A stretch of 64,000 bases of DNA from Gammaproteobacteria bacterium (GCA_965237805.1 OZ250153.1:1-64000); one strand, 5' to 3'; counted from the first letter of the stretch, positions 47,679 through 60,405 are shown. The notes: a model not told the origin generated them from the sequence alone. Made by a program: numbers and translations.

Positions 47679-50083
47679 AGTTCAGTGAGCGTTGGTTGCG
47701 CGACTGGGTCGACCCGCCGGTAGACAGTGCGGAGCTGGCCGAGCAGTTGACGATGGCCGGGCTCGAGTTCGCTACCAGCGAGGCCATCGCCCCGGCCTTC
47801 GATGGTGTGTTGGTGGCCGAAATCACTGCGCTCGAATCCCACAGTGTCCGCCGTGTGCAGCTGTGTCGCTTGCACTGTGGAGAGGGGCGGGCAGATGCGA
47901 CTGTCATCAGCGGGATGCCGGGGCTCGCTGTCGGTCTACGTGTGCCCTATGCGCCACCCGGTGCGCAGCTGCCCGGTGGTGTGATGGAGGCGCGCGAGAT
48001 CGGTGGGGTGCTTTCCGAGGGCATGATCTGCGCGGGCGAAGAGCTGGGGCTCGGTGCCGAGGGACCGCCGCTGCTGCCGTTGCCGGAAGCGGCTCCCGGC
48101 ACACTGTTGGCACAGGCGCTGGCGTTCGACGATCGGCTGATCGAGCTGGAGCTGACGCCGAACCGGGGCGATTGCCTCAGCCTGCTCGGCATCGCCCGCG
48201 AAGTGGCCGCCCGCAATCGCTTGCCGTTGGCTCCAGCGGCGGCTGGCGGAGCGGCGGCGGTGTCAACCAGCTGCGATACGGCGCTGGAGGTGGAACTGCA
48301 GGCACCCGCCGACTGCCCGCTGTTCTGCGGCCGGGTGCTGCTCGACATCGATCTCAGTGCGCACACACCGGCGTGGATGCGCGAACGGCTACGTCGCTCT
48401 GGGATACGCGCCATCGATCCGGTGGTCGATGTCAGCAACTATGTGATGTTGGAGCTGGGGCAGCCCATGCACTGTTATGACTTGGCGCGCTTGCGTGGCC
48501 CGATCTCGGTGCGCCGCGCCCGCCCCGGCGAGGCTTTGCGCCTACTCGATGACAGCGAGCTGGAGCTGAGCGAGGAGGATCTGCTGATCGCTGACAGCGA
48601 GCGACCGCTGGGCTTGGCCGGCATCATGGGTGGTGCCGCCAGCGCCGTCGATCGTAGCAGCCGCAGTGTATTCTTGGAGGCCGCATTTTTCGACCCGCAG
48701 CTGATTGCCACTCGCAGCCGTGCGCGGCAGCTGCAAACCGATGCCTCGCGTCGCTTTGAGCGTCGGGTCGACCCGAATTTGCCGCAACGCGCCATAGAGC
48801 GCGCCACCGCCTTGCTGCTCGATATCGTCGGCGGCAAGCCGGGGCCAGTCACCGTGGCTCGGAGCGCCGAGCAGCTGCCGGTAGCGCCGCAGCTGCGGCT
48901 ACGTTATCAGCGCATCGGGCAGCTACTCGGCGACGCGCCATCGGTGGCAGAAGTCGTCGAACTGCTCGCCAGCATCGGCGTAGTTTTGGAAGAGGAGGAG
49001 GATGGTTGGCTGGCGCGGCCGCCGAGCTGGCGCGGCGATTTGACTCTGGAGGTCGATCTGATTGAGGAGATTGCGCGGTTGCGCGGCTACGACCAGCTGC
49101 CCAAGCGGCGTCCCAGCGCCCCCTGTGCCATCGCCGCTGGCCGTCACAATTGGGTGATGGGTCTGCGTCGGCGCATCGCGGCGCGCGGCTTTTTCGAGGT
49201 GCTCAATTTCAGTATGGCACCAGCTACATGGCAGCGCAGCTTGCACCCAGGGATCGAGGCTGTCGAGCTGTTGCAACCCCTGTCCCAAGAGCTCGGCGAG
49301 CTGCGGCTCAGCCTATGGAGCGGGCTGTTGGCCAACGCCCAGCATAACCAGCGGCGCGGTGAAGGCCGCCTGCGATTGTTCGAGATCGGGCATTGTTTTG
49401 CCCCGGGGGCGGAGGGCGAGGTGCTGGAATCCGAGCGGCTGGGGTTGCTCAGCTGCGGTGCGCGCTGGCCAGAAAACTGGAGTCATGCTGCCGATCGCGC
49501 TGACTGCGATGCCCATGACCTCAAGGGTGAACTCGAGTCCTTGCTGCCCGATGGCGCTGAGGTGGCATGGCGGTTCAGTGCTGGCGACAGTCCGTCGCTA
49601 CATCCGGGTCGCCAAGCGGTGTTGTGCCGTGATGGTGAATTGGTCGGCAGAGTGGGGCAATTGCACCCGGCGATCGTGCGCGAGCTGGAGCTGGACACAG
49701 TTCCCTGCCTCGCCGAGCTGCGGTTGGATGCCTTGGCGGAGCGCTGGCGGCGGGCACCGCTCAGCCCGCCGCTGCGATCGCCAGCACTGTTGCGCGACTT
49801 GGCGCTGGTGGTCCCCGAGGAGATGCCTGCCGCCGATATTGAGCAGCAGCTGCGTTGCGCACTCGGTTCGGACTTGGAGCGTATCGTGCCCTTTGACCTC
49901 TATTGCGGAGCGGGCATCCCCAGTGGGCACAAGAGTTTGGCTTTCCGTTTGGTGATGCGTCGCGCCACCGGATCTTTCAGCGAAGAGGAGGCAAGTGTTA
50001 TACTAAAACGAGTAATAAAGCGGTTGGAAAGCGACCACGGCATCTTTTTACGTGCCGCGCCGGTTGCGATGGACAGTACTTGA
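47675..50083 (+). CDS. pheT: phenylalanine--tRNA ligase beta subunit
   Basis: [41 protein letters not shown]. Confidence 0.96.
49976..50004 (+). promoter_or_regulatory. putative internal promoter for ihfA within the 3' end of pheT
   Basis: TTCAGC-17 nt-TATACT with TGn extension in a local AT-rich patch. Confidence 0.45.
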
Positions 50084-50085
50084 AA

Positions 50086-50406
50086 GTGGCAAAACCAGTC
50101 TTGGCAGTCGGTGAAGGCAAGCTGGTGCGCGCCGCTCTCGCCGAGCGATTGCATCGGGAGATCGGATTCAACAAGCGCGAGGCTCGGGATTTGGTTGGCA
50201 GCATCATCGAAGAGGTCTGCGCTGCCCTCGGCGAGGGTGAGGAGGTCAAGCTGAGCGAGCTTGGCCATTTCCGCCTGCATCATTGCAGGCAACGACCCGG
50301 TCGCAACCCGCGTACCGGTGAGCCGGTACCGGTGCCCGCGCACCGTGCCGTCAGCTTCTACCTAGGTCCTAAACTTAAGACCCAGTTGGGTGCCTCCAAT
50401 GGCTAA
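50086..50406 (+). CDS. ihfA: integration host factor alpha
   Basis: GFNKREA..LV, VKLS..G.F, RPGRNPRTGE; follows pheT. Confidence 0.88.
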   Translation: MAKPVLAVGEGKLVRAALAERLHREIGFNKREARDLVGSIIEEVCAALGEGEEVKLSELGHFRLHHCRQRPGRNPRTGEPVPVPAHRAVSFYLGPKLKTQLGASNG

Positions 50407-50782
50407 GACACAGCGTGCGACGGTGCGCCGCGATGTCGCCAAGGTCGATGAGCGTTGGCTCGGCGGCTTGCCCGATAAGCGTTATTTCACCATCAGCGAG
50501 GCTGGCAAGCTGTGCGGTGTGCAACAGCATGTGTTGCGTTATTGGGAAGAGGAATTCCCAATGCTCAGCCCGCAACGGCGCAATAATCGGCGCTACTATC
50601 AGCGGGCGGACTTGATCTTGGTACACCAAATCCAGCAGCTATTGCGCGCAGAGGGTTATACCGTCAGCGGTGCGCGCAACCTGCTCGCCGGTGAGCGCGG
50701 GCGCAACGATAGCTCCTTGCGTCGTGAGTTGTTGCGCGGTCTGATCAAGGATCTTGAAACTCTGCGCACGATGCTCAACTAA
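50399..50782 (+). CDS. MerR family transcriptional regulator
   Basis: LPDKRYFTISE, HVLRYWEEEFP, RRYYQR, GYTVSGAR; conserved after ihfA. Confidence 0.92.
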   Translation: MAKTQRATVRRDVAKVDERWLGGLPDKRYFTISEAGKLCGVQQHVLRYWEEEFPMLSPQRRNNRRYYQRADLILVHQIQQLLRAEGYTVSGARNLLAGERGRNDSSLRRELLRGLIKDLETLRTMLN

Positions 50783-50842
50783 ATCAGATGGTTGCCCCCC
50801 CTTGCCGAGCAAGCTGACTTGTCCGGACGATTGTCGATAAAA

Positions 50843-50919
50843 CGGGGCGTGGCGCAGTCTGGTAGCGCACCACACTGGGGGTGTGGTGGTCGCTGGTTCA
50901 AATCCAGCCGTCCCGACCA
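50843..50919 (+). tRNA. tRNA-Pro(GGG)
   Basis: Anticodon arm CCACA-CTGGGGG-TGTGG; ends CCGACCA. Confidence 0.95.
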
Positions 50920-50950
50920 GCCCGCACCGCTTCGTTTTGCCCTCGGCACC

Positions 50951-52873
50951 TTGCTGGCGCTGAGCCTGACTGGCACTGCCAGCATTGGTCGATCTGCCGA
51001 ACGTGCTCCGTGCGCCGACTACCGCACCGAACGGCAGCTGTTTTTTGGCGATCTCCATGTCCACACCGCCTATTCGCTGGATGCGGCGATACAGGACACG
51101 CGCAACAAGCCCGCCGATGCCTATCGTTTTGCGCGCGGGGAGAAAATTGGTCTGCAGCCCTACGATCGTGCGGGACAGCCCCTGCGTGAATTGCAGCTGC
51201 GCCGACCCTTGGATTTTACCGCTGTCACCGACCACGCCGAGGCTCTCGGCGAGGCCACGATTTGTCGCTCGCCGGGTGCCGCTGGCTACAACCATTGGCA
51301 ATGCTATCTGCTGCGCTGGATGCCGAAGTTGGCGCTGACGGTGCTGATGGGGCGCATCACGGCAGCGCAGGACGGCGAAAATTTGTCGCTCTGCGGCAAG
51401 GGCAAAACGCGTTGTATCGAGCAGGCCTCACGCAGCTGGGACGACATCATAGCGGCGGCTCATGCGGCCTACGATCGCAGTTCGGAATGTCGCTTCACCA
51501 CTTTTATCGGCTATGAGTGGACCGCTTCGCTTGATGGTGACAATCTGCACCGCAATGTGATATTTAGGAACGACAATTTGGGAGCCTTGCCCCAACCCCC
51601 GCCGAGCTCTTTGCAGCTGCGCAGCTCGGACGATTTGATCGATGCCCTAGATCGGCAATGCTATCAGCAGCCGGGCTGCGATGTGATCAGCATCCCCCAC
51701 AACTCCAACCTCAGCAACGGTCTGATGTTTCCGCTCGGAGATGATAGCGCCACAGTGGGCGCCCAGCGCGCCACATGGGATCCTGCAGTGGCGCGCCGTC
51801 GGGCGCGGATGGAGCCCTTGTTCGAGGTCATGCAACACAAAGGCGATTCGGAGTGTTGGTATGGCCCCGGAGTGGAGGATGAGCTATGTGCTTTCGAGAA
51901 GCTGCCTTTTGACAATTTTGCTGGCAGTTTCTATCGCACACTGTCCAACCCGCCGTCCCCGCTCACCGGCTATGCCCGCACGGTGTTGCTGGCGGGCTTG
52001 CAATACCAAGCCGAGATCGGTGTCAATCCATGGCGCTTTGGCCTGATCGCAGCCACCGATACCCACCTTGGGGCACCGGGTGCGGTGTCCGAGGAAGATC
52101 ATATGGGACATGGCGGTGGCGGCAAAGTGGCCACTGATAGCAGTGATGCCATTATCCCCGACACCATGGAGTACAACCCCGGTGGTTTGGCGGCGGTGTG
52201 GGCCGAGGAGAACAGCCGCGACTCCCTGTTCAACGCCATGCGTCGGCGCGAGGTCTATGGCACCAGCGGTCCGCGCATCTCCCTGCGTTTCTTTGGCGGT
52301 TGGAACTATTCCAAATCGCTGTGCGACTCGCCGAACTTGGCGCGTCGTGGCTATGCTGGCGGCACGCCGATGGGGGGCGCGATGGAACCCAATCCCGCCT
52401 GGGGTCGTGGCGGCCCGCAGTTTGTCGCGCTGGCCCAGCGCGATGCCGGCACCGAGGGGCGCCCCGGTGCGCCGCTACAGCGTCTGCAGATTATCAAGGG
52501 CTGGGTCGATGCCGCGGGCGAACGGCGCGAGCAGGTCTACGATGTGGCCGGTAGCCCGGCTAACGGGGCCTCGGTGGAGCTGTCGACTTGTCGGCGTCAA
52601 GGTGCTGGTCACGACCGTCTGTGTACGGTGTGGAGCGATCCCGATTACAGCGCCGATCAGCATGCCTTTTACTACGCACGTGCGGTGGAGAACCCGAGTT
52701 GTCGCTGGAGTGCTTATGTCTGTAATGCCAACGGGGTCGATTGCTCGCGTCCGGATAAAGTCGCCAAAGCATTCAAGTCCTGTTGTGCCAGCGATCATCG
52801 CTGGACCATACAGGAGCGCGCTTGGAGTTCGCCGATCTGGCTCAGTCCAGAGGGGAGCTCACTCCACCGCTAA
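50951..52873 (+). CDS. DUF3604 secreted PHP-like metallohydrolase, paralog 1 (start uncertain)
   Basis: FGDLHVHTAYSLDA, LDFTAVTDHAE, IPHNSNLSNG, EVMQHKGDSEC, TDTHLG, YGTSGPRI, QERAWSSPIW. Confidence 0.88.
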   Translation: MLALSLTGTASIGRSAERAPCADYRTERQLFFGDLHVHTAYSLDAAIQDTRNKPADAYRFARGEKIGLQPYDRAGQPLRELQLRRPLDFTAVTDHAEALGEATICRSPGAAGYNHWQCYLLRWMPKLALTVLMGRITAAQDGENLSLCGKGKTRCIEQASRSWDDIIAAAHAAYDRSSECRFTTFIGYEWTASLDGDNLHRNVIFRNDNLGALPQPPPSSLQLRSSDDLIDALDRQCYQQPGCDVISIPHNSNLSNGLMFPLGDDSATVGAQRATWDPAVARRRARMEPLFEVMQHKGDSECWYGPGVEDELCAFEKLPFDNFAGSFYRTLSNPPSPLTGYARTVLLAGLQYQAEIGVNPWRFGLIAATDTHLGAPGAVSEEDHMGHGGGGKVATDSSDAIIPDTMEYNPGGLAAVWAEENSRDSLFNAMRRREVYGTSGPRISLRFFGGWNYSKSLCDSPNLARRGYAGGTPMGGAMEPNPAWGRGGPQFVALAQRDAGTEGRPGAPLQRLQIIKGWVDAAGERREQVYDVAGSPANGASVELSTCRRQGAGHDRLCTVWSDPDYSADQHAFYYARAVENPSCRWSAYVCNANGVDCSRPDKVAKAFKSCCASDHRWTIQERAWSSPIWLSPEGSSLHR

Positions 52874-52923
52874 TCGCGGGCCACCATCGGCGTCGCTTCC
52901 CTATCCCTATGGAGGATTGCAAA

Positions 52924-54915
52924 ATGTTGACTGGATATCGTGCGTCGGTGCCGGCATTCCTCTTGGCTGTGCTGGCTGTGATGCTCTGCAGCCAAGCCAA
53001 CGCCGCAGACTATCCGCCGCGTGCCTATGAGATCACCGAGGAGCGTGAGCCATGCCGCGACTATCGCCCCTTGCGTCAAGTCTTTTATGGCGACACCCAT
53101 GTGCACACCGGTTTTTCTTTGGATGCGGCGCTGCAGGGGACGATCAATACGCCGGACGATGCCTATCGATTCGCCCGCGGTGCGCGTCTGGGCCTGCAAC
53201 CCTACGATAGCGAGGGCACCCCGCAGCGCCACGCTCAGTTGCTCCGCCCGCTGGACTTTAGCGCCGTGACCGACCATGCGGAGATGTTTGGCACGGTCGC
53301 TGTCTGTACCAATCCGGAATCGGCTGGCTACAGTAATTTTATGTGCAAAATTTACCGGCGCTGGCCCCATTTGCTCTACCGCGTCATGATCCCGCTGTCG
53401 CTCGGCACCCGTCAGCTGGCGGTGAAGGATCCCCGTTTCGCTTTTTTGCGCAAATACACCGATGCCAAACTAGCGCCCCCGCCACCGCAGTGCGGCGAGG
53501 ATAATTCCGCCTGTATCGCCGGTACCCAGCGGCTGTGGCAGGAGGAGCAGCGCGCTGCCGAGCGCGCCTACGATCGCAGTTCCGACTGTGGCTTCACTTC
53601 TTTTGTCGCCTATGAATACACGGCCAATGCCGAGGTCAATCTCCACCGCAACATCATTTTTCGCAATGAACACGTGCTGGAGGAGCCGATCGGCCTGCAA
53701 CAGGCGGTGACCACGCAGCTGCTGCTCCAAGCGCTGGAGCAGAAATGCTTGGATGCCGGCACTGGCTGCGATTTGTTGGCTATCCCGCACAATCCCAATC
53801 TCAGCAGTGGCGCGATGTTCCCGCTGGACGAATCGCTGAGCCGCGATGAGGCGCGGCGCTGGAGCCGTATTGAGAGGCTGATCGAGGTCATGCAACACAA
53901 GGGCGATTCCGAGTGCTGGTTCGGGCCGGGTGTCGAGGACGAATTGTGCAACTTCGAGAAATTGCCTTACAACAATTTCGCCGGTCGATTTTTCAAGCGC
54001 TTTAACTATGCGCCCACGCCCGACGACGGCTTCGTTCGCGCCACGCTCAGCGAGGGCCTGCGCCGCGCAGAGCGCAGTGGTGTCAACCCGTGGCAGTTCG
54101 GTTTGTTGGCGGCCACCGACACCCATCTCGGCACGCCGGGGGCAGTGGCTGAGGCTCGCCATCGCGGTCACGGTGGTGCTGGCAAGACGGTGCGCCGGGG
54201 CGAGGCACCATCATTGCCAGACGACATCGAATATAACCCCGGTGGTCTAGCCGGGGTGTGGGCCGAGGAGAATACCCGCGACGCGCTGTTCGCGGCGATG
54301 CGTCGGCGCGAGGTCTTCGGTACCAGTGGCCCACGCATGAGCCTGCGTTTCTTCGGCGGTTGGGGCTATGCACCGACGCTGTGCAGCAGTCCGGATTTCG
54401 TCGCCCAAGGCTACGCTGGCGGCGTACCGATGGGCAGCGAGCTGCTCAGGCCTAGCCGGGTCGGCGCGACGCCGCGTTTTGCCGTGATGGCGCAGCGCGA
54501 TCCGGGTGCCAAGGAGCTTCCCAGCACCCCCCTGCAGCGCCTACAAATCATCAAGGGGTGGATCGATGACAAGGGTGAGCGCCGCCAACGCGTCTACGAT
54601 GTAGCTGGCAATCCGGACAATGGCGCTTCGGTCAATGTGGCCACCTGCACCCGCAGTGGCACTGGCCACGATCGCCTGTGTACGGTGTGGCGCGACCCCG
54701 ACCACGATCCCAGCATGCGCGCTTGGTATTACGCTCGTGCGGTGGAAAATCCCAGCTGTCGTTGGAGCGCTTATGTCTGCAATGCGAGAGGTGTGGACTG
54801 CTCGCGACCGGAGACCGTGGGAGAGGGCTATGCTGCCTGTTGCAAGAGCGATTTTTCGCCCAGTCAACAAGAACGCGCTTGGAGTTCGCCCATCTGGTAT
54901 ACGCCGACTGATTGA
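52924..54915 (+). CDS. DUF3604 secreted PHP-like metallohydrolase, paralog 2
   Basis: GGAGG RBS, signal peptide ending ANA, GDTHVHTGFSLDA, TDHAE, HNPN, TDTHLG, QERAWSSPIW. Confidence 0.9.
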   Translation: MLTGYRASVPAFLLAVLAVMLCSQANAADYPPRAYEITEEREPCRDYRPLRQVFYGDTHVHTGFSLDAALQGTINTPDDAYRFARGARLGLQPYDSEGTPQRHAQLLRPLDFSAVTDHAEMFGTVAVCTNPESAGYSNFMCKIYRRWPHLLYRVMIPLSLGTRQLAVKDPRFAFLRKYTDAKLAPPPPQCGEDNSACIAGTQRLWQEEQRAAERAYDRSSDCGFTSFVAYEYTANAEVNLHRNIIFRNEHVLEEPIGLQQAVTTQLLLQALEQKCLDAGTGCDLLAIPHNPNLSSGAMFPLDESLSRDEARRWSRIERLIEVMQHKGDSECWFGPGVEDELCNFEKLPYNNFAGRFFKRFNYAPTPDDGFVRATLSEGLRRAERSGVNPWQFGLLAATDTHLGTPGAVAEARHRGHGGAGKTVRRGEAPSLPDDIEYNPGGLAGVWAEENTRDALFAAMRRREVFGTSGPRMSLRFFGGWGYAPTLCSSPDFVAQGYAGGVPMGSELLRPSRVGATPRFAVMAQRDPGAKELPSTPLQRLQIIKGWIDDKGERRQRVYDVAGNPDNGASVNVATCTRSGTGHDRLCTVWRDPDHDPSMRAWYYARAVENPSCRWSAYVCNARGVDCSRPETVGEGYAACCKSDFSPSQQERAWSSPIWYTPTD

Positions 54916-55877
54916 TGGCTGCTCTTGACAGCGCAACCAGCGGTTGTCTGCGCACCCTGTGCCAAGCGCTTTGGCAGCGCCCGCTATTGCGTTTTCTGCT
55001 TTACGGTGTCGCTTTATATCTAGCGATCAGCTATGTGACAGTGCCCGCGCCCGAGCCGCTGTTGATGGCGGGGCAGGGCGAGCAGCTGCGCGTGAATTGG
55101 ATTCGCCAGACCGGTCGCGAGCCGGATGAGCGCGTACTGCGTCTTCTGTTGCGCCAAGCCGTCAATGAGGAACTGCTGTTCCGCAGTGCCATCGATCAGG
55201 GCATGCACCTGATCGATCCGCTGGTGCGCCGCCGCTTGGTACGCAATATGCGTTTTTTGGGAGAGGAAGCTGAGGCGGGAGCCCTGTTGCGAAAGGCCTT
55301 CCGCATGGGCATGCAGCTGCAGGATCAAGTGGTGCGCCGGCGTTTGTTGCAGTTGATGGAATTCGGTGCCCGTGCCCAAGTTGCCACCATCGGCGAGGAG
55401 GAGCTGCGCACCTATTATGCCGAGCGCAGCGATGCGTTGCGCAGCCGGCGCATCAGCTTTGAGCATCGCTTTTTCAGCAATGAGAAGCGCGGCGAAGATG
55501 CCGCTGAGCAGCTGGCGCGACAGCTGGCCACGCAGTGTGCGGTGACTGAGCAGCTGCCGTCCGATGGTGATGTCTTTGATGCTGGTGAGTCTTTTGTGGC
55601 TCAGAGCCGTGCCAAGATAGGCAAGCACTTCGGCTTTGCTTTCGCCGATGTTCTATTGCGCGCAGAGGCTGGCAGCTGTTTGGGCCCGGTGCCCTCATCC
55701 TATGGTCAACATGTCGTGTGGCTGTCGGCAAGCGTCGAGCAGATGCCAGCCTTTGCCACGGTGCGCGCGCTGTTGCACGAGGAATTGATGGAGCGGCGCA
55801 CGCGTCAACAGCTGCAACGATTGGTCGGTGAATTGCGCGAGCGCCACCCGATGACCACGCAGGATCTCAGTTACTGA
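54915..55877 (+). CDS. membrane-anchored PpiC/parvulin-like peptidylprolyl isomerase
   Basis: PLLRFLL.G anchor, EELLFR.A...G....D..VRRRL (twice), SFEHRFF, FG..FA, GPVPSSYG.HVV. Confidence 0.83.
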   Translation: MAALDSATSGCLRTLCQALWQRPLLRFLLYGVALYLAISYVTVPAPEPLLMAGQGEQLRVNWIRQTGREPDERVLRLLLRQAVNEELLFRSAIDQGMHLIDPLVRRRLVRNMRFLGEEAEAGALLRKAFRMGMQLQDQVVRRRLLQLMEFGARAQVATIGEEELRTYYAERSDALRSRRISFEHRFFSNEKRGEDAAEQLARQLATQCAVTEQLPSDGDVFDAGESFVAQSRAKIGKHFGFAFADVLLRAEAGSCLGPVPSSYGQHVVWLSASVEQMPAFATVRALLHEELMERRTRQQLQRLVGELRERHPMTTQDLSY

Positions 55878-56890
55878 TGGCGACTTTGCGGTGGCACTGG
55901 CTACTGTTGGCCGCCGTGGCTATCGCCGTAGCCGTCCCCGCGCTGGGCTTTGGCCACCGCTTGGCCCCCGCTCTGATCGATGTCGAGGACAGCGACGAGC
56001 CCGGGGTCTACAGGATGCGATGGCAGGAGGCTGCTGTCAGCAGTGCGCCGATGGAGCCCCGCTGGCCAGCGCACTGTGAGGGCGAACAACAGGGCCCCAC
56101 GCGCTCTGTACTGACTCCGACCGGTCGTGCCTCAGAGACCGAGTGGCGATTGCGTTGCGAGCCCCACTCACTGGCTGGTGGAGAGTTCGGGGTGGATGGC
56201 CTGCTTGTCGGCACCGGCTTTGTGTTGTTGCGTTTCAATTTCAATGACAGTGTGCCCAGCTCTTATATGTTGAGCCACGCTGAAGCTGCTTTCACCGTGC
56301 CGACGCACTGGCACGGCAATGTAGCCTTCGGCTACCTGAAGCTGGGCACGGAGCACATCCTGAGTGGCTATGACCACCTGTTGTTTGTCTTTGGCCTGCT
56401 ATTGCTGTGTCGTTCACCGCGCGAATTGCTATTTACCATCACTGCCTTCACGGTCGGTCACAGCATCACTTTGGGTTTGGCTGCCTTCGATACCGTGTTG
56501 ATCCCGTTGTCGCTGATCGACTATCTGATACTGCTGAGCATTTTGTATATGGCGGTGGCGGTGGCCCGCCGCGAGCGTCGAGCGCCCAGCTCGCAATGGC
56601 GGGCACCGCTGGTGGCGGCGCTGTTTGGTTTGCTCCACGGCCAAGGTTTTTCCTCTTTTCTGCGCGATATCGGCCTGCCGCCTGGCAAGGTGCCCAGCGC
56701 CCTCCTGGGTTTCAATGTCGGGATCGAGTTGGGGCAGCTACTCTTTGTCGGCACGGTGATCCTGCTCGCCTTGCTGTTGGCGCGCGTGCCGCAAATCTCC
56801 ATGCTGCAGCTGCGTCTGATCTGCACTGAGCTGATGGGGGCATTGGCTGCGCTGTGGACGGTGCAGAAGACCTTGGAATTCCTGCTCTGA
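55877..56890 (+). CDS. HupE/UreJ family metal (Ni/Co) transporter-like protein
   Basis: Signal peptide then His, LGTEHILSGYDHLLFV, TAFTVGHSITL, FGLLHG.GF, GFNVGIELGQ. Confidence 0.9.
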   Translation: MATLRWHWLLLAAVAIAVAVPALGFGHRLAPALIDVEDSDEPGVYRMRWQEAAVSSAPMEPRWPAHCEGEQQGPTRSVLTPTGRASETEWRLRCEPHSLAGGEFGVDGLLVGTGFVLLRFNFNDSVPSSYMLSHAEAAFTVPTHWHGNVAFGYLKLGTEHILSGYDHLLFVFGLLLLCRSPRELLFTITAFTVGHSITLGLAAFDTVLIPLSLIDYLILLSILYMAVAVARRERRAPSSQWRAPLVAALFGLLHGQGFSSFLRDIGLPPGKVPSALLGFNVGIELGQLLFVGTVILLALLLARVPQISMLQLRLICTELMGALAALWTVQKTLEFLL

Positions 56891-56922
56891 GGCCGGTCGC
56901 GCACCAGCTGTACAAGTCGCGC

Positions 56923-58371
56923 TCAGCGTTGTAGCTGTTGCTTGAGCATATTGTTCACCTTATCGCTATAAGGTGGCATCATGCCAAATAATTTGTGTAT
57001 GCTGACGTACCCTTGGTAGAACACAGATCGGGTGTGGCTGAAGGTGCGGAAACCATCGCGTCCGCGGTAGTTTCCCATGCCGCTGGCACCGATGCCGCCG
57101 AAGGGCAGGTCGTCGCAACCGACGTGCATCATCACCTCGTTGATCGTCACGCCGCCGGAGTGGGTCGATGCCAGTACATGGCGCATTTCCTTGTGGTTGC
57201 TACCGAAGTAATACAGCGCCAGCGGTCGCGGCCGCGAGTTGATCAGCTCGATGGCCTCGTCGATTTTTTGGTAGCCGAGCACGGCCAGCACTGGGCCGAA
57301 TAGCTCGTTGTTCATCAGCTCGCTGTCCAGCTCTGGGCGCAGCACCAGCTGCAGTGGCATTTTGTTGTGCTTTTGGCGCGAGAATGTGTCGTCGGCGGGG
57401 TTTAGCACCTCGATGCGCTCACAGTGGCCTGCCAGTGGTTCCAAATAGGATTGCAGGCGATCGCGGTGGTGCTTGTTGATTATCGAGCTGTAGTCCGGGT
57501 TGTTGAGTAGCGTCGGGTACAGCTGTTTGAAGGCCTTCCGACAATGGTCGGCAAAGGCCTCGACCCGATCGTCTGGAACCAGCACATAGTCGGGGGAGAC
57601 GCAGGCTTGGCCAGCATTCATGGTCTTGCCGAGCAGGATTTTTAAGGCCACTGCCTCCAAGTTGGCACTGCGCGAGATGATGACCGGTGACTTGCCCCCT
57701 AGTTCCAGTGTCGTCGGTGTCAGTTGCGATGCCGCATTGCGCAATACCTGGCGTCCGGATTCTGTGCCGCCGGTGAAGATCAGGTGATCCAGCGGCAGCT
57801 GGCTGAAGGTGGCACCGACGGTGGCATCGCCCGGGAAGACGGCGATTTCGCTGACCTCGAAGTACTGCTCGAACAGATCTGCCATCAGACTCGCTGTGCT
57901 CGGTGCCAGCTCCGAGGGCTTGATCATGGTGCGGTTGCCCGCCCCGATGACATCGGCCAGCGGGCTGAAAATCATATTGACCGGGAGATTCCACGGCGTC
58001 ATGATGCCGACCACACCCTTTGGTTGATAGTGAACTTGTGCTTTGGCACCAGTCAGCGCCATGATCCCCGGTGGCCGGCGCCGCTCGGGACGCATCCAGC
58101 GACGCAGATTCTTTTTGACGAATTTCAGCGAACCCAGCGAGGTGAGGATTTCGCTCATCATGCTCTGGTGGGTCGAGCGGGCACCGAAATCTGCCGACAG
58201 CGCGTCGACCATATAGGGTGCGTGGTCGACCAACATGGCGATGCAACGGTCGAGCCGGTCGATACGGGTAGCGTATTGCACCTCGCCCTCGGCGCGGAAA
58301 GCTGCCCGTTGTATGCTCAGTGCGGCCTGCAATTGTGCGGCCACTGGCGCTTTTTTCGGTCTCGCCATCAT
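56923..58371 (-). CDS. coniferyl-aldehyde/fatty aldehyde dehydrogenase family
   Basis: PKGVVGI..PWN, KPSE, FTGG, LELGGKSP, GQACVSPDY, ELFGP, PFGGIG.SGMG.Y.G. Confidence 0.92.
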   Translation of the reverse strand: MMARPKKAPVAAQLQAALSIQRAAFRAEGEVQYATRIDRLDRCIAMLVDHAPYMVDALSADFGARSTHQSMMSEILTSLGSLKFVKKNLRRWMRPERRRPPGIMALTGAKAQVHYQPKGVVGIMTPWNLPVNMIFSPLADVIGAGNRTMIKPSELAPSTASLMADLFEQYFEVSEIAVFPGDATVGATFSQLPLDHLIFTGGTESGRQVLRNAASQLTPTTLELGGKSPVIISRSANLEAVALKILLGKTMNAGQACVSPDYVLVPDDRVEAFADHCRKAFKQLYPTLLNNPDYSSIINKHHRDRLQSYLEPLAGHCERIEVLNPADDTFSRQKHNKMPLQLVLRPELDSELMNNELFGPVLAVLGYQKIDEAIELINSRPRPLALYYFGSNHKEMRHVLASTHSGGVTINEVMMHVGCDDLPFGGIGASGMGNYRGRDGFRTFSHTRSVFYQGYVSIHKLFGMMPPYSDKVNNMLKQQLQR

Positions 58372-58383
58372 CAGTTTCCGTGT

Positions 58384-59994
58384 TCAGATGGCGTGACCCA
58401 TCATGGATGCTGCACGGGCACCGATCATCACTGCTGTCGCATTGGTGTTGCCGGTGAGGGCCGAGGGGATTACCGAAGCGTCGGCGATGCGCAGGCCAGA
58501 CAGCCCTCGCACCTGCAGCTGCGGATTCACCACGGCTGCGGCATCGTCTTCTGCCCCCATCTTGCAGCTGCCCACTGGATGGTAGACCGAGGCCGCCTCG
58601 CGGCGGATATATTCCATGATGGCTTGGTCGCTGTCGTCGGCTGGTGTGGTGATACCAGAATCCGATGCACGGTAGCGTTCAAAAGGCTTTGCGGCGAAGA
58701 GAGAGCGCACTAGCCGGCAGCACGAGATCAGCGCCTTGCGGTCGAACTCCTCGCTGAGGTAGTGGGCGCGGATTACCGGAGCTGCTATGGGGTTGGCAGT
58801 ATGGATGTGCACGGAGCCGCGGCTCTGTGGGTGCAAATGGCAGACCGTGGCGGTGACACCGGGTGCGATCTGCAAATGGCCTTTTTTGTTGTAGCGCCCG
58901 GTGGCTGGTGTGAAATGAATTTGGGCGTCGGGGCGATCCAGTCCCGGGTCGCTCTTGAAAAAGGCACCGCTCTCGGAGGCAGGGTGGACGAGAAAACCGC
59001 GTTGACGGACGAAGTAGCTCAGCAAGTTGCGGGCAAAGGATAGCGGGCGCATCTCGTCGTAGAGCGTGCGGATATCCTGCAGCCCCTGATACATATTGAC
59101 AGTCAGATGATCCTGCATAGAGGCACCGACACCGGGCAGCTCATGGCGCGGCTCGACGCCGGCGGCGCGCAACAGCTCGGGGTCGCCGATGCCAGATAGT
59201 TCCAATAGCTGTGGGCTGCCGATGGTGCCCGCACAGATCGCGACCTCGTCCTCGGCACGGGCGATGTGCAAGGATTTGCCTTGGCGGTAGCGCACGCCGA
59301 CGGCGCGGTCGCCTTCCAGCTCAATCCCCACCGCCAGCGCACCGACCGCAACTTCCAAGTTGGGGCGCTTGCGTGCGCTTGCCAGTGCGCTGACGGCGAG
59401 GCTCTGGCGGCGACCGCGGCGGATGTTGGTCTGGTAGTAGCCGATGCCCTCGTTGTTGCCACGATTGAAATCCTCGCAGCGTTGCCAGCCAATGCTCGTG
59501 CCCGCCTCGATGAAGATCTCGTCCACCGGATAGCGGTTGACCGGATTGTCCACCCACAGTGCTCCGCCGACTCCGTGGCATTCATCGGCACCGTTGACAT
59601 TGTGCTCGGTGCGGCGGAACCAAGGCAGCACATCGTCCCATGCCCAGCCAGCACAGCCCGCGGTCGCCCAGTCCTCGTAGTCGAGGTGGTGGCCGCGAAT
59701 GTAGACCATGCCATTGATCGAGCTGCAACCGCCCAGCACCTTGCCACGCGGGAAATCGATGCGCCGCTGTGAGAGCTGATTTTCTGGTTCGGTGGCGAAG
59801 CACCAGCTGAAGTTCGGGTCTTTGAGTATCCGGGTGAAACCGCCCGGAATATGAATCATCGGATGGCGATCTTCGCCGCCAGCTTCGAGTAACAGTACCC
59901 GGCGGCTGGCCTCGCGGCTCAGCAGGCTGGCGAGTACACAGCCAGCACTGCCAGCACCGATGATGATGTAGTCGTAGACCTTGTCCTCAGGCAC
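58384..59994 (-). CDS. GMC family oxidoreductase (alcohol/choline dehydrogenase-like)
   Basis: YDYIIIGAGSAGC, PRGKVLGGCSSINGMVY.RG, YHPVGSCKMG, GNTNA; probable GTG start at 59994. Confidence 0.92.
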   Translation of the reverse strand: MPEDKVYDYIIIGAGSAGCVLASLLSREASRRVLLLEAGGEDRHPMIHIPGGFTRILKDPNFSWCFATEPENQLSQRRIDFPRGKVLGGCSSINGMVYIRGHHLDYEDWATAGCAGWAWDDVLPWFRRTEHNVNGADECHGVGGALWVDNPVNRYPVDEIFIEAGTSIGWQRCEDFNRGNNEGIGYYQTNIRRGRRQSLAVSALASARKRPNLEVAVGALAVGIELEGDRAVGVRYRQGKSLHIARAEDEVAICAGTIGSPQLLELSGIGDPELLRAAGVEPRHELPGVGASMQDHLTVNMYQGLQDIRTLYDEMRPLSFARNLLSYFVRQRGFLVHPASESGAFFKSDPGLDRPDAQIHFTPATGRYNKKGHLQIAPGVTATVCHLHPQSRGSVHIHTANPIAAPVIRAHYLSEEFDRKALISCCRLVRSLFAAKPFERYRASDSGITTPADDSDQAIMEYIRREAASVYHPVGSCKMGAEDDAAAVVNPQLQVRGLSGLRIADASVIPSALTGNTNATAVMIGARAASMMGHAI

Positions 59995-60405
59995 TGGCAG
60001 TGCTCGTGACGCGTCGCCACCATCCAGACCAAAGACTAAGGCCGCAACCGAGCCCCATTCGAAGATCAGCGCCCCGCTGACATGGCTGTCCCCGCAGCTG
60101 CCGTCGATGATGGCTCCGACGGTGCGTGGCAAGACCAAGGCGAGCATCGCCGTCAGCTAGAAGAACATCATTTGGTGCAACCATTGCGGCCGCAACAGGG
60201 GGATTAGTAACAGTACGCCAGCCCAGAGCTGGAGCACGCCGTAGCTGTGGCGCGTATTTCGCTGAGCCATGCCACGTTGGCGTCATTGACATCAAAGGCG
60301 TTTGCCAGCCAGCTGTACAGGATGCAACAAGCAATAGACACCGTCGCTCAAATAAGCCACAGCGCTGATGCCCAAGAGTATTTGACAGTAACGCATGATG
60401 TCCAT
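59987..60405 (-). pseudogene. DUF4345-like small membrane protein, frameshifted with internal stop
   Basis: MDIMRYCQILLGISAVAYLSDGVYCLLHP / EIRA / YGVLQLWAGVLLL...*...RTVGAIIDG...GALIFE; TAG at 60157-60159. Confidence 0.65.

Follow-up and report, generated by a model that had tools for sequence, protein, structure and literature searches.

What unites the four genes that follow tRNA-Pro(GGG) in a 64,000-nucleotide stretch of a Gammaproteobacteria bacterium (GCA_965237805.1 OZ250153.1:1-64000; this whole stretch is called the window below), and what might they do in common? A sequence-only reading had seen four co-directional genes starting at the tRNA, with TGATG overlaps at the later junctions, and had assigned them to two DUF3604 proteins, a PpiC-type foldase and a HupE_UreJ_2 membrane protein. 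The layout is confirmed by ARAGORN, Rfam and the open reading frames (ORFs), with stop/start overlaps at 54913-54917 (g2/g3) and 55875-55879 (g3/g4), and Pfam bears out all four domain assignments. The genes are named g1 to g4 in the order in which they are read; their coordinates and scores are listed in Table 1. The same reading had taken the locus for a self-contained module in which accessory proteins fold and metallate an exported metalloenzyme. Our analysis draws the unit differently: it is the parvulin-type gene g3 and the HupE_UreJ_2 gene g4 that belong together, and we tentatively propose that this pair assists exported DUF3604 enzymes.

The evidence for the pair comes from a survey of genomes, one genome per species, that were scanned with a profile of g4. 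The best 80 of at least 596 confirmed stretches (596 of 600 pattern matches) were retained as loci, and the genes of the locus were searched in them with hidden Markov models (HMMs) built from our own alignments. In 75 of the 80 loci the gene immediately 5' of g4, in the same orientation, is g3-like. Among the other five, L056 and L076 are cut by a contig end, L058 is interrupted by transposase genes, L006 offers only 1.6 kb of upstream sequence, and no g3-like gene was found in L072. With this adjacency, the clustering of g3 and g4 is not due to chance. DUF3604 lies within the fetched flanks of 36 of the 80 loci: upstream on the same strand in 27, directly downstream on the same strand in four, convergent in three, and degenerate or distant in two (L058, L006). 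Where it is upstream, the gap between the HMM envelopes is at most 64 nt in 20 of the 27 cases, and sometimes DUF3604 overlaps g3; the usual order in the survey is DUF3604-g3-g4. Set against a background rate that is an estimate, DUF3604 occurs beside the pair far too often, and is too tightly packed against it, for chance. Because a g3-like gene adjoins g4 in 75 loci and DUF3604 is present in 36, we regard g3 plus g4 as the constant core and DUF3604 as a frequent, non-obligatory partner. Some long ORFs in which g4 appeared to be fused to upstream sequence (L014, L018, L065, L076) were discarded as artefacts of upstream ORF extension; in L018 the g3 and g4 matches are in different frames.

A tree of g4 was made from 79 loci and the window, L080 being dropped for its split g4 hit, and a locus was called non-adjacent only where at least 2.5 kb of flank was present on each side. 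By this rule 33 loci are DUF3604-adjacent, 36 are non-adjacent and 10 are undecidable. The adjacent loci are spread over seven phyla, with at least 13 state changes on the tree, and about half of the non-adjacent loci form one Halieaceae clade of 20. The co-occurrence of DUF3604, PpiC-like and HupE_UreJ_2 genes, for which the sequence-only reading had suggested a neighbourhood survey, is thus recurrent, in seven phyla and also on plasmids of cultured bacteria. A second observation concerns numbers within one genome. The contig that bears the window (1,725,584 bp) appears to hold at least five DUF3604 paralogs (P0005, P0029, P0030, P0082 and P0087), and only one g3-like and one g4-like protein among the matches listed. 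Given these paralogs and the DUF3604 genes that stand alone elsewhere, the module is not self-contained in a one-to-one sense, and that part of the earlier claim had to be given up in favour of an invariant unit of PpiC-like and HupE_UreJ_2 genes.

The wider surroundings of the surveyed loci are varied. In loci with DUF3604 the neighbours (105 proteins) are heterogeneous, with TonB receptors, sulfatases, DUF1254/DUF1214 and alpha/beta hydrolases scattered among them, and in the Halieaceae loci they include a KAS-like gene, an FkbM methyltransferase, a nitroreductase and an enoyl-CoA hydratase. An alternative client of the pair in loci without DUF3604 was sought and rejected, there being no recurring secreted enzyme among the 107 neighbour proteins according to Pfam. 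In a Ruegeria metagenome-assembled genome (L058:1-11000) transposase genes lie between g3 and g4 and within the DUF3604 gene, and insertion sequences seem to have disrupted the module there. A Colwellia metagenome-assembled genome (L044:9000-18200) carries g3-g4 with a convergent DUF3604 and, in addition, a second DUF3604-g3 pair without g4; genes for DUF1254, DUF1214, an alkyl-sulfatase and a sulfatase surround them.

Annotated plasmid records, searched by tblastn, form a set independent of the genome survey. There, g4-like genes were found on 72 records and DUF3604 on 78, mostly from Rhizobium and Sinorhizobium, and a manual comparison of the tables places a DUF3604 match at most 3 kb away in 27 of 40 g4 records among the matches listed. 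The annotated plasmid of R. leguminosarum 248 reads DUF1254, DUF3604, hypothetical protein, peptidylprolyl isomerase and HupE-UreJ, and the trio is also present on annotated plasmids of P. donghaensis (Pseudoalteromonas), a strain of S. meliloti (with a PhnA-like gene nearby), R. leguminosarum WSM1689 and Rhodobacter sp. CZR27. For the trio of S. meliloti RCAM1115, megablast found no other full-length copy. Solitary DUF3604 genes are carried by plasmid records of Ruegeria sp. YS9 and Salipiger sp. CCB-MM3. The pair is found beside a classical HupE_UreJ gene, two CobW/COG0523 GTPases and DUF1826 on pSC52_1 of Rhodobacteraceae bacterium SC52, and beside an Opp/Nik-type ATP-binding cassette (ABC) transporter on a plasmid of Rhodobacteraceae bacterium M382. 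The run on pSC52_1 (L086:2800-10900) consists of a short DUF3604 fragment, a hypothetical gene, the classical HupE_UreJ, g3-like, g4-like, a weakly HupE-like gene, the two CobW/COG0523 genes and DUF1826, and looks like a metal-starvation cluster. Two further neighbours recur. DUF1254/DUF1214 genes adjoin the module on rhizobial plasmids and in Colwellia (L081:3761-5197, L084:7034-10158, L085:1-1332, L044:14224-15434). A hypothetical protein of 358-398 residues, for which Pfam has no family, is encoded between DUF3604 and the g3-like gene in R. leguminosarum 248 (L081:7680-8876) and between DUF3604 and the classical HupE_UreJ, followed by the g3-like gene, in SC52 (L086:3427-4503); some lineages may have it as a fourth member of the module.

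Of the two window copies of the presumed client, g2 has a normal export signal. Its start is preceded by a Shine-Dalgarno sequence, GGAGGA, at 52911-52916, 8 nt 5' of the ATG, and the protein begins with the Sec-type signal MLTGYRASVPAFLLAVLAVMLCSQANA, cleaved at ANA/AD; a twin-arginine motif was found neither in this signal nor in the DUF3604 paralogs compared. The Pfam matches of both g1 and g2 span positions 2-591 of the 591 in the profile (gathering cut-off 20.4 bits). In an alignment of 45 DUF3604 sequences, both window copies included, the residues H59, H61, D117, H118, E231, H241, H289, N290, D399 and H401 are invariant. The metal-ligand motifs picked out by the sequence-only reading, HxH (H59, H61), TDH (D117, H118), HN (H289, N290) and DxH (D399, H401), therefore prove invariant or nearly so. 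The same alignment contains 18 invariant cysteines, which point to oxidative folding in the periplasm and, with the Sec-type signal of g2, support the disulfide-rich, exported enzyme that had been postulated.

The AlphaFold2 (AF2) model of g2 has a predicted local distance difference test (pLDDT) of 89.5 and a predicted TM-score (pTM) of 0.91, and its predicted fold is a PHP-like barrel with insertions, followed by a C-terminal beta domain. The top two PDB matches of this model in Foldseek, and the only ones with E below 0.001, are chains of 3E38 (BVU_3505), a metal-dependent phosphoesterase that is PHP-like and has two domains; the match has E 2.9e-4 and probability 1.00, but its TM-score on the target is only 0.45. 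Barrel and beta domain are present in each, and the HxH...DxH pattern is invariant in DUF3604; unlike PHP proteins of the 3E38 type, however, DUF3604 is about twice as long, has large insertions and 18 invariant cysteines, and is exported. Atlas searches with g2 yielded leads only, all below 0.9: two 'Phosphoesterase' clusters scored 0.82 and 0.81, and one in which 31% of the members carry PHP scored 0.76. The PHP-type fold claimed earlier thus stands at the level of fold; at the level of sequence it does not, as the searches given further below make clear. We read DUF3604 as an exported, disulfide-rich hydrolase of PHP type with a predicted metal site, most likely a phosphoesterase. A recent preprint treats DUF3604 as a TIM-barrel family for which metal binding is not reported (10.64898/2026.10.18.759936). 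The family is large, with thousands of sequence clusters in our search, and no functional study of it was found in the literature searched. A table of transposon mutants lists CT_425 (CTL0684, 622 aa) of Chlamydia trachomatis among proteins with a DUF3604 domain (PMC11925237), so the family extends to obligate intracellular bacteria.

The other DUF3604 gene of the window, g1, has an unusual beginning. Its frame is open from 50792 onward, across the tRNA, and the 3' CCA end of the tRNA abuts the g1 reading frame; a terminator scan found no terminator-like site between the two. Downstream of the tRNA there is neither ATG nor GTG at which g1 could start. The first canonical start is the TTG at 50951, without a Shine-Dalgarno sequence, and from it the signal peptide is a 13-residue stump, 'MLALSLTGTASIG', with the n-region missing. 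Of the export-signal-like N-termini ascribed to both DUF3604 proteins, only that of g2 is therefore upheld; that of g1 is incomplete and lacks a proper start. In spite of this, g1, which is 54% identical to g2, retains every His, Asp, Glu and Cys that is invariant in the family. Its ortholog in a closer relative (P0032) has the same tRNA read-through junction and is 82% identical over 632 residues with one gap. This identity matches that between g2 and its own ortholog (81%), apparently on the contig of P0032, and g1 seems to be constrained for that reason. In P0028, an ortholog further removed, the N-terminus is normal. From these comparisons g1 appears to be under constraint despite having no evident start, ribosome-binding site or full signal peptide of its own, and it may be co-transcribed with tRNA-Pro.

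For g3, the first member of the core, a single N-terminal transmembrane helix is followed by a helical chaperone region and a parvulin domain. Our alignment shows the motifs of the family, F-x-H-(V/I)-F-F, GDPF and S-x-Y-G-x-H, with S261, G264 and H266 nearly invariant, and a g3 profile finds in the PDB Campylobacter PEB4/Cbf2 (3rfw, E 1e-10), then SurA, HP_0175 and PrsA. The anchor, the motifs and these matches together indicate a membrane-anchored periplasmic chaperone of the PEB4/SurA/PrsA class, and by its sequence g3 is a parvulin-type chaperone of this kind, with predicted activity. The likeness extends to PpiD: both PpiD and the lipid-anchored PrsA are membrane-attached, as g3 would be through its N-terminal helix. 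In contrast to the housekeeping chaperones PrsA, SurA and PEB4, g3 belongs to a small family of its own, whose members share about 30-40% identity, and unlike general chaperones it is tied to a single gene partner, g4. The g3 of the window has only three close relatives among the matches listed (67-75% identity).

In g4, the second member, a signal peptide is followed by a histidine, His27, that stands right after the A-x-A cleavage site in 33 of the 33 homologs aligned and is the predicted mature N-terminus. A periplasmic beta domain with two invariant cysteines (about residues 27-150) precedes the membrane core, and the HupE_UreJ_2 match covers residues 153-302 (Pfam). Invariant in the membrane core of the 33 sequences are H160, D166, H167, H195, H254, N280, E284 and Q287. 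The AF2 model (pLDDT 86.8) likewise shows the beta domain, at about residues 32-140, and then membrane helices, and many close homologs also carry PF04955. With the HupE/UreJ nickel/cobalt permeases g4 shares the Pfam match, the signal peptide with a mature N-terminal His and the His-rich membrane helices, as well as its place in a metalloenzyme operon (that of DUF3604, by prediction), HupE/UreJ being encoded in hydrogenase/urease clusters. It differs from them in a further periplasmic domain, about 125 residues long, that separates the N-terminal His from the membrane core, in being almost always paired with a parvulin-type gene, and in accompanying an enzyme that is Sec-exported instead of cytoplasmic or Tat-exported. 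On these features we propose g4 as a putative divalent-metal permease of the HupE/UreJ type.

The N-terminal domain of g4 has no Pfam family, and Atlas gave no usable match for it. Foldseek finds as its best PDB matches PA4063 of P. aeruginosa and ZrgA of V. cholerae (probability 1.00, E 1.7e-3 to 6e-3, TM-score on the target 0.45-0.55), a modest resemblance in a common beta fold, and a profile search of the PDB finds neither of the two. PA4063 and ZrgA are zinc-binding periplasmic proteins (PMC8561739 and PMC9820375) with metal ligands near the N-terminus and a conserved disulfide, the N-terminal ligands of ZrgA being histidines (PMC9820375). The g4 domain parallels them in its two invariant cysteines and its invariant N-terminal His. 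It departs from them in that the TM-scores are about 0.5, a sequence-level relationship was not found and a His-rich loop is not seen; moreover, ZrgA exists as a separate protein that works for an ABC importer, while the g4 domain is fused to a HupE-type core. On the g4 tree the window's copy has a very long branch, 1.73 where the median is 0.48, and it is at most 41% identical to the proteins of the 79 loci. Judged by its sequences, the accessory pair of the window's lineage is unusually divergent.

Complex prediction with g3 and residues 27-337 of g4 gave a score of 0.59 (0.59, 0.58 and 0.59 in the separate runs), the best of three controls reaching 0.00. At least 90% of contacts are shared between the runs, and the partner has a pLDDT of at least 79. 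In the calibration of the tool, 116 of 157 solved complexes scored at or above the mark, as did two of 215 mismatched pairs; scores up to 0.60 include 18 of the 157 solved complexes and both of the passing mismatches, counts that hold roughly, since our own alignments were used. The frequent overlaps of the two genes and the weakly supported prediction are compatible with a membrane complex, and g3 and g4 probably form one.

How, then, might the parts work together? In the reading that we tentatively favour, to which we give slightly less than an even chance, g3 and g4 serve the folding and metal supply of exported DUF3604 enzymes. The proteins g1 and g2 would be Sec-exported hydrolases, rich in disulfides, whose multinuclear metal site is of the PHP type; g3 would be an inner-membrane-anchored chaperone of the PrsA/SurA/PEB4 kind; and g4 would be a HupE/UreJ-type divalent-metal permease, whose His-first periplasmic domain resembles zinc-handling proteins. 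Co-produced and joined in a membrane complex, g3 and g4 would aid newly exported DUF3604 proteins in folding and in acquiring metal at the periplasmic face of the membrane, whichever metal, direction of transport and chemistry may be involved. We infer that every DUF3604 paralog in a genome would depend on a single pair, in the way that many sulfatases share one maturation enzyme. The bolder version, a widespread periplasmic maturation machine that captures metal through a His-first domain and loads the correct one into folding, Sec-exported PHP-fold hydrolases, we consider rather unlikely.

Several results weigh against this proposal. The pair lacks an adjoining DUF3604 in 36 of the 69 decidable loci, where its neighbours (107 proteins, Pfam) are mixed housekeeping and lipid-metabolism genes, and DUF3604 genes occur on their own. 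As to the enzyme, the Pfam PHP model does not match DUF3604 even at E up to 10, and PDB sequence searches with a DUF3604 protein and with the profile of 45 sequences matched no solved structure. As to the pair, the prediction of the g3-g4 complex is weak, and the likeness of the g4 domain to ZrgA and PA4063 is at fold level only, beta-sandwiches being common. A palindrome resembling a Zur box (up to three mismatches allowed) had no match in the window, and no metal-responsive operator was found there with this motif. Finally, HupE/UreJ proteins, where studied, import nickel or cobalt into the cytoplasm, and loading a Sec-exported enzyme would call for the opposite direction.

Import would suit a reversal of roles: g4 would take up a divalent metal, aided by g3 as a partner in assembly or structure, once DUF3604 in the periplasm had freed that metal from an imported chelate or ester. 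The g4 domain resembles ZrgA and PA4063, which pass zinc to importers (PMC9820375). TonB-dependent receptors adjoin the trio in L019, L029, L044, L063, L069 and L073, CobW/COG0523 and DUF1826 genes lie beside the pair on pSC52_1, and the Opp/Nik-type transporter of strain M382 would fit as well. However, several DUF3604 genes per pair suit a catabolic enzyme family better than a dedicated releasing enzyme, the TonB receptors are confined to a minority of the scanned loci, and genes for the synthesis or recognition of a chelate do not recur in these loci; we find the reversal improbable. To a similar, low degree we credit the possibility that g3 and g4 are a general metal-homeostasis unit, near which DUF3604 lies through a shared regulon or co-mobilisation, without direct dependence. 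The loci in which the pair is free of DUF3604, including all of the Halieaceae clade, speak for such independence, as does the fact that many carriers are plasmids or megaplasmids. It accounts poorly for a DUF3604 gene within 64 nt of g3, or overlapping it, in most upstream cases, and for a gene order that recurs in seven phyla through at least 13 gains and losses on the g4 tree; chance would also hardly bring a rare family with few copies per genome to within 10 kb of the pair in 36 of 80 loci, given an estimated background rate. Least probable is a service that does not involve metal, for example uptake of a reaction product by g4 with g3 as a specific foldase of the lipase type: g3 is indeed chaperone-like, and phosphate-related neighbours are scattered about (His_Phos_1 in L063, L069 and L073, a Na/Pi cotransporter in L051, the PhnA-like gene in S. 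meliloti, phnE near the solitary DUF3604 of Ruegeria sp. YS9), but g4 has invariant His, Asp, Glu, Asn and Gln in its membrane core and a His at its N-terminus, such as metal sites typically have, and its Pfam family is HupE/UreJ.

Folding and metal supply of DUF3604 by the pair, the reading we tentatively retain, would follow an accessory logic that has precedents. Helpers encoded beside their client include the lipase-specific foldase (Lif), NifM for the nitrogenase Fe protein and the formylglycine-generating enzyme for sulfatases. As in those systems, a specific factor stands beside one copy of its client and may serve several paralogs; in contrast to them, there is no sequence relationship save the parvulin domain of NifM, and g3 is coupled to the metal-permease-like g4. 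The hydrogenase or urease style, for which the client should be cytoplasmic or Tat-exported after cofactor insertion, does not describe this locus: g2 has no twin arginine, and its family has 18 invariant cysteines. The four domains belong to known families; as far as our searches reach, the recurrent trio and the near-obligate parvulin/HupE_UreJ_2 pair are new, and no mention of HupE_UreJ_2, PF13795 or PF12228 was found in the literature searched.

Table 1. The tRNA gene and the four genes that follow it, with window coordinates and the evidence for each
Feature	Coordinates	Strand	Evidence
tRNA-Pro(GGG)	50843-50919	+	ARAGORN; Rfam RF00005, 63.3 bits
g1, first DUF3604 paralog, 640 aa from TTG	50951-52873	+	Pfam PF12228, E 6e-168, 560.4 bits
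g2, second DUF3604 paralog, 663 aa	52924-54915	+	Pfam PF12228, E 2.6e-158, 528.6 bits
g3, parvulin-type, 320 aa	54915-55877	+	Pfam PF13145 Rotamase_2 (PpiC type), E 1.5e-9, 39.1 bits (cut-off 27)
g4, HupE_UreJ_2 membrane protein, 337 aa	55877-56890	+	Pfam PF13795, E 5e-45, 153.4 bits (cut-off 24.5)

On its 5' side the locus is bordered by pheS, pheT and a MerR-family gene (Pfam/NCBIfam); NCBIfam has no model for the DUF3604 proteins or g4. Genes for an aldehyde dehydrogenase and a GMC (choline-dehydrogenase-like) oxidoreductase, on the minus strand at 56923-60147, converge on the end of g4, and no association of these two with the module was seen in the other loci. The G+C content is mildly reduced at the module (about 0.60, against 0.65 upstream). 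A genomic island inserted at the tRNA was considered and found unsupported, since no att-like repeat of the 3' end of the tRNA (25 nt, up to three mismatches) exists in the window. In the region 50000-57500 the tRNA is the sole Rfam match, with no regulatory RNA; a single short palindrome lies in 50700-53100, inside g1, and the counts of promoter-like and terminator-like sites are about those expected from shuffled sequence.

How Sec-exported periplasmic enzymes acquire their metals is poorly understood, and the dedicated accessory systems known to us, those of urease and hydrogenase, act in the cytoplasm. The three-gene set, recurring in seven phyla, would offer a concrete and testable case in which a cysteine-rich hydrolase, predicted to hold a multinuclear metal site, is linked with a chaperone and a metal-permease-like protein. 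It is present in Rhizobium leguminosarum and Pseudoalteromonas donghaensis, which are culturable and genetically tractable, and it gives a first functional handle on DUF3604. If the bolder version is true, periplasmic hydrolases would have in the pair their first dedicated metal-insertion system, and a route would open to the function of the large DUF3604 family in rhizobia, marine heterotrophs and Chlamydia.

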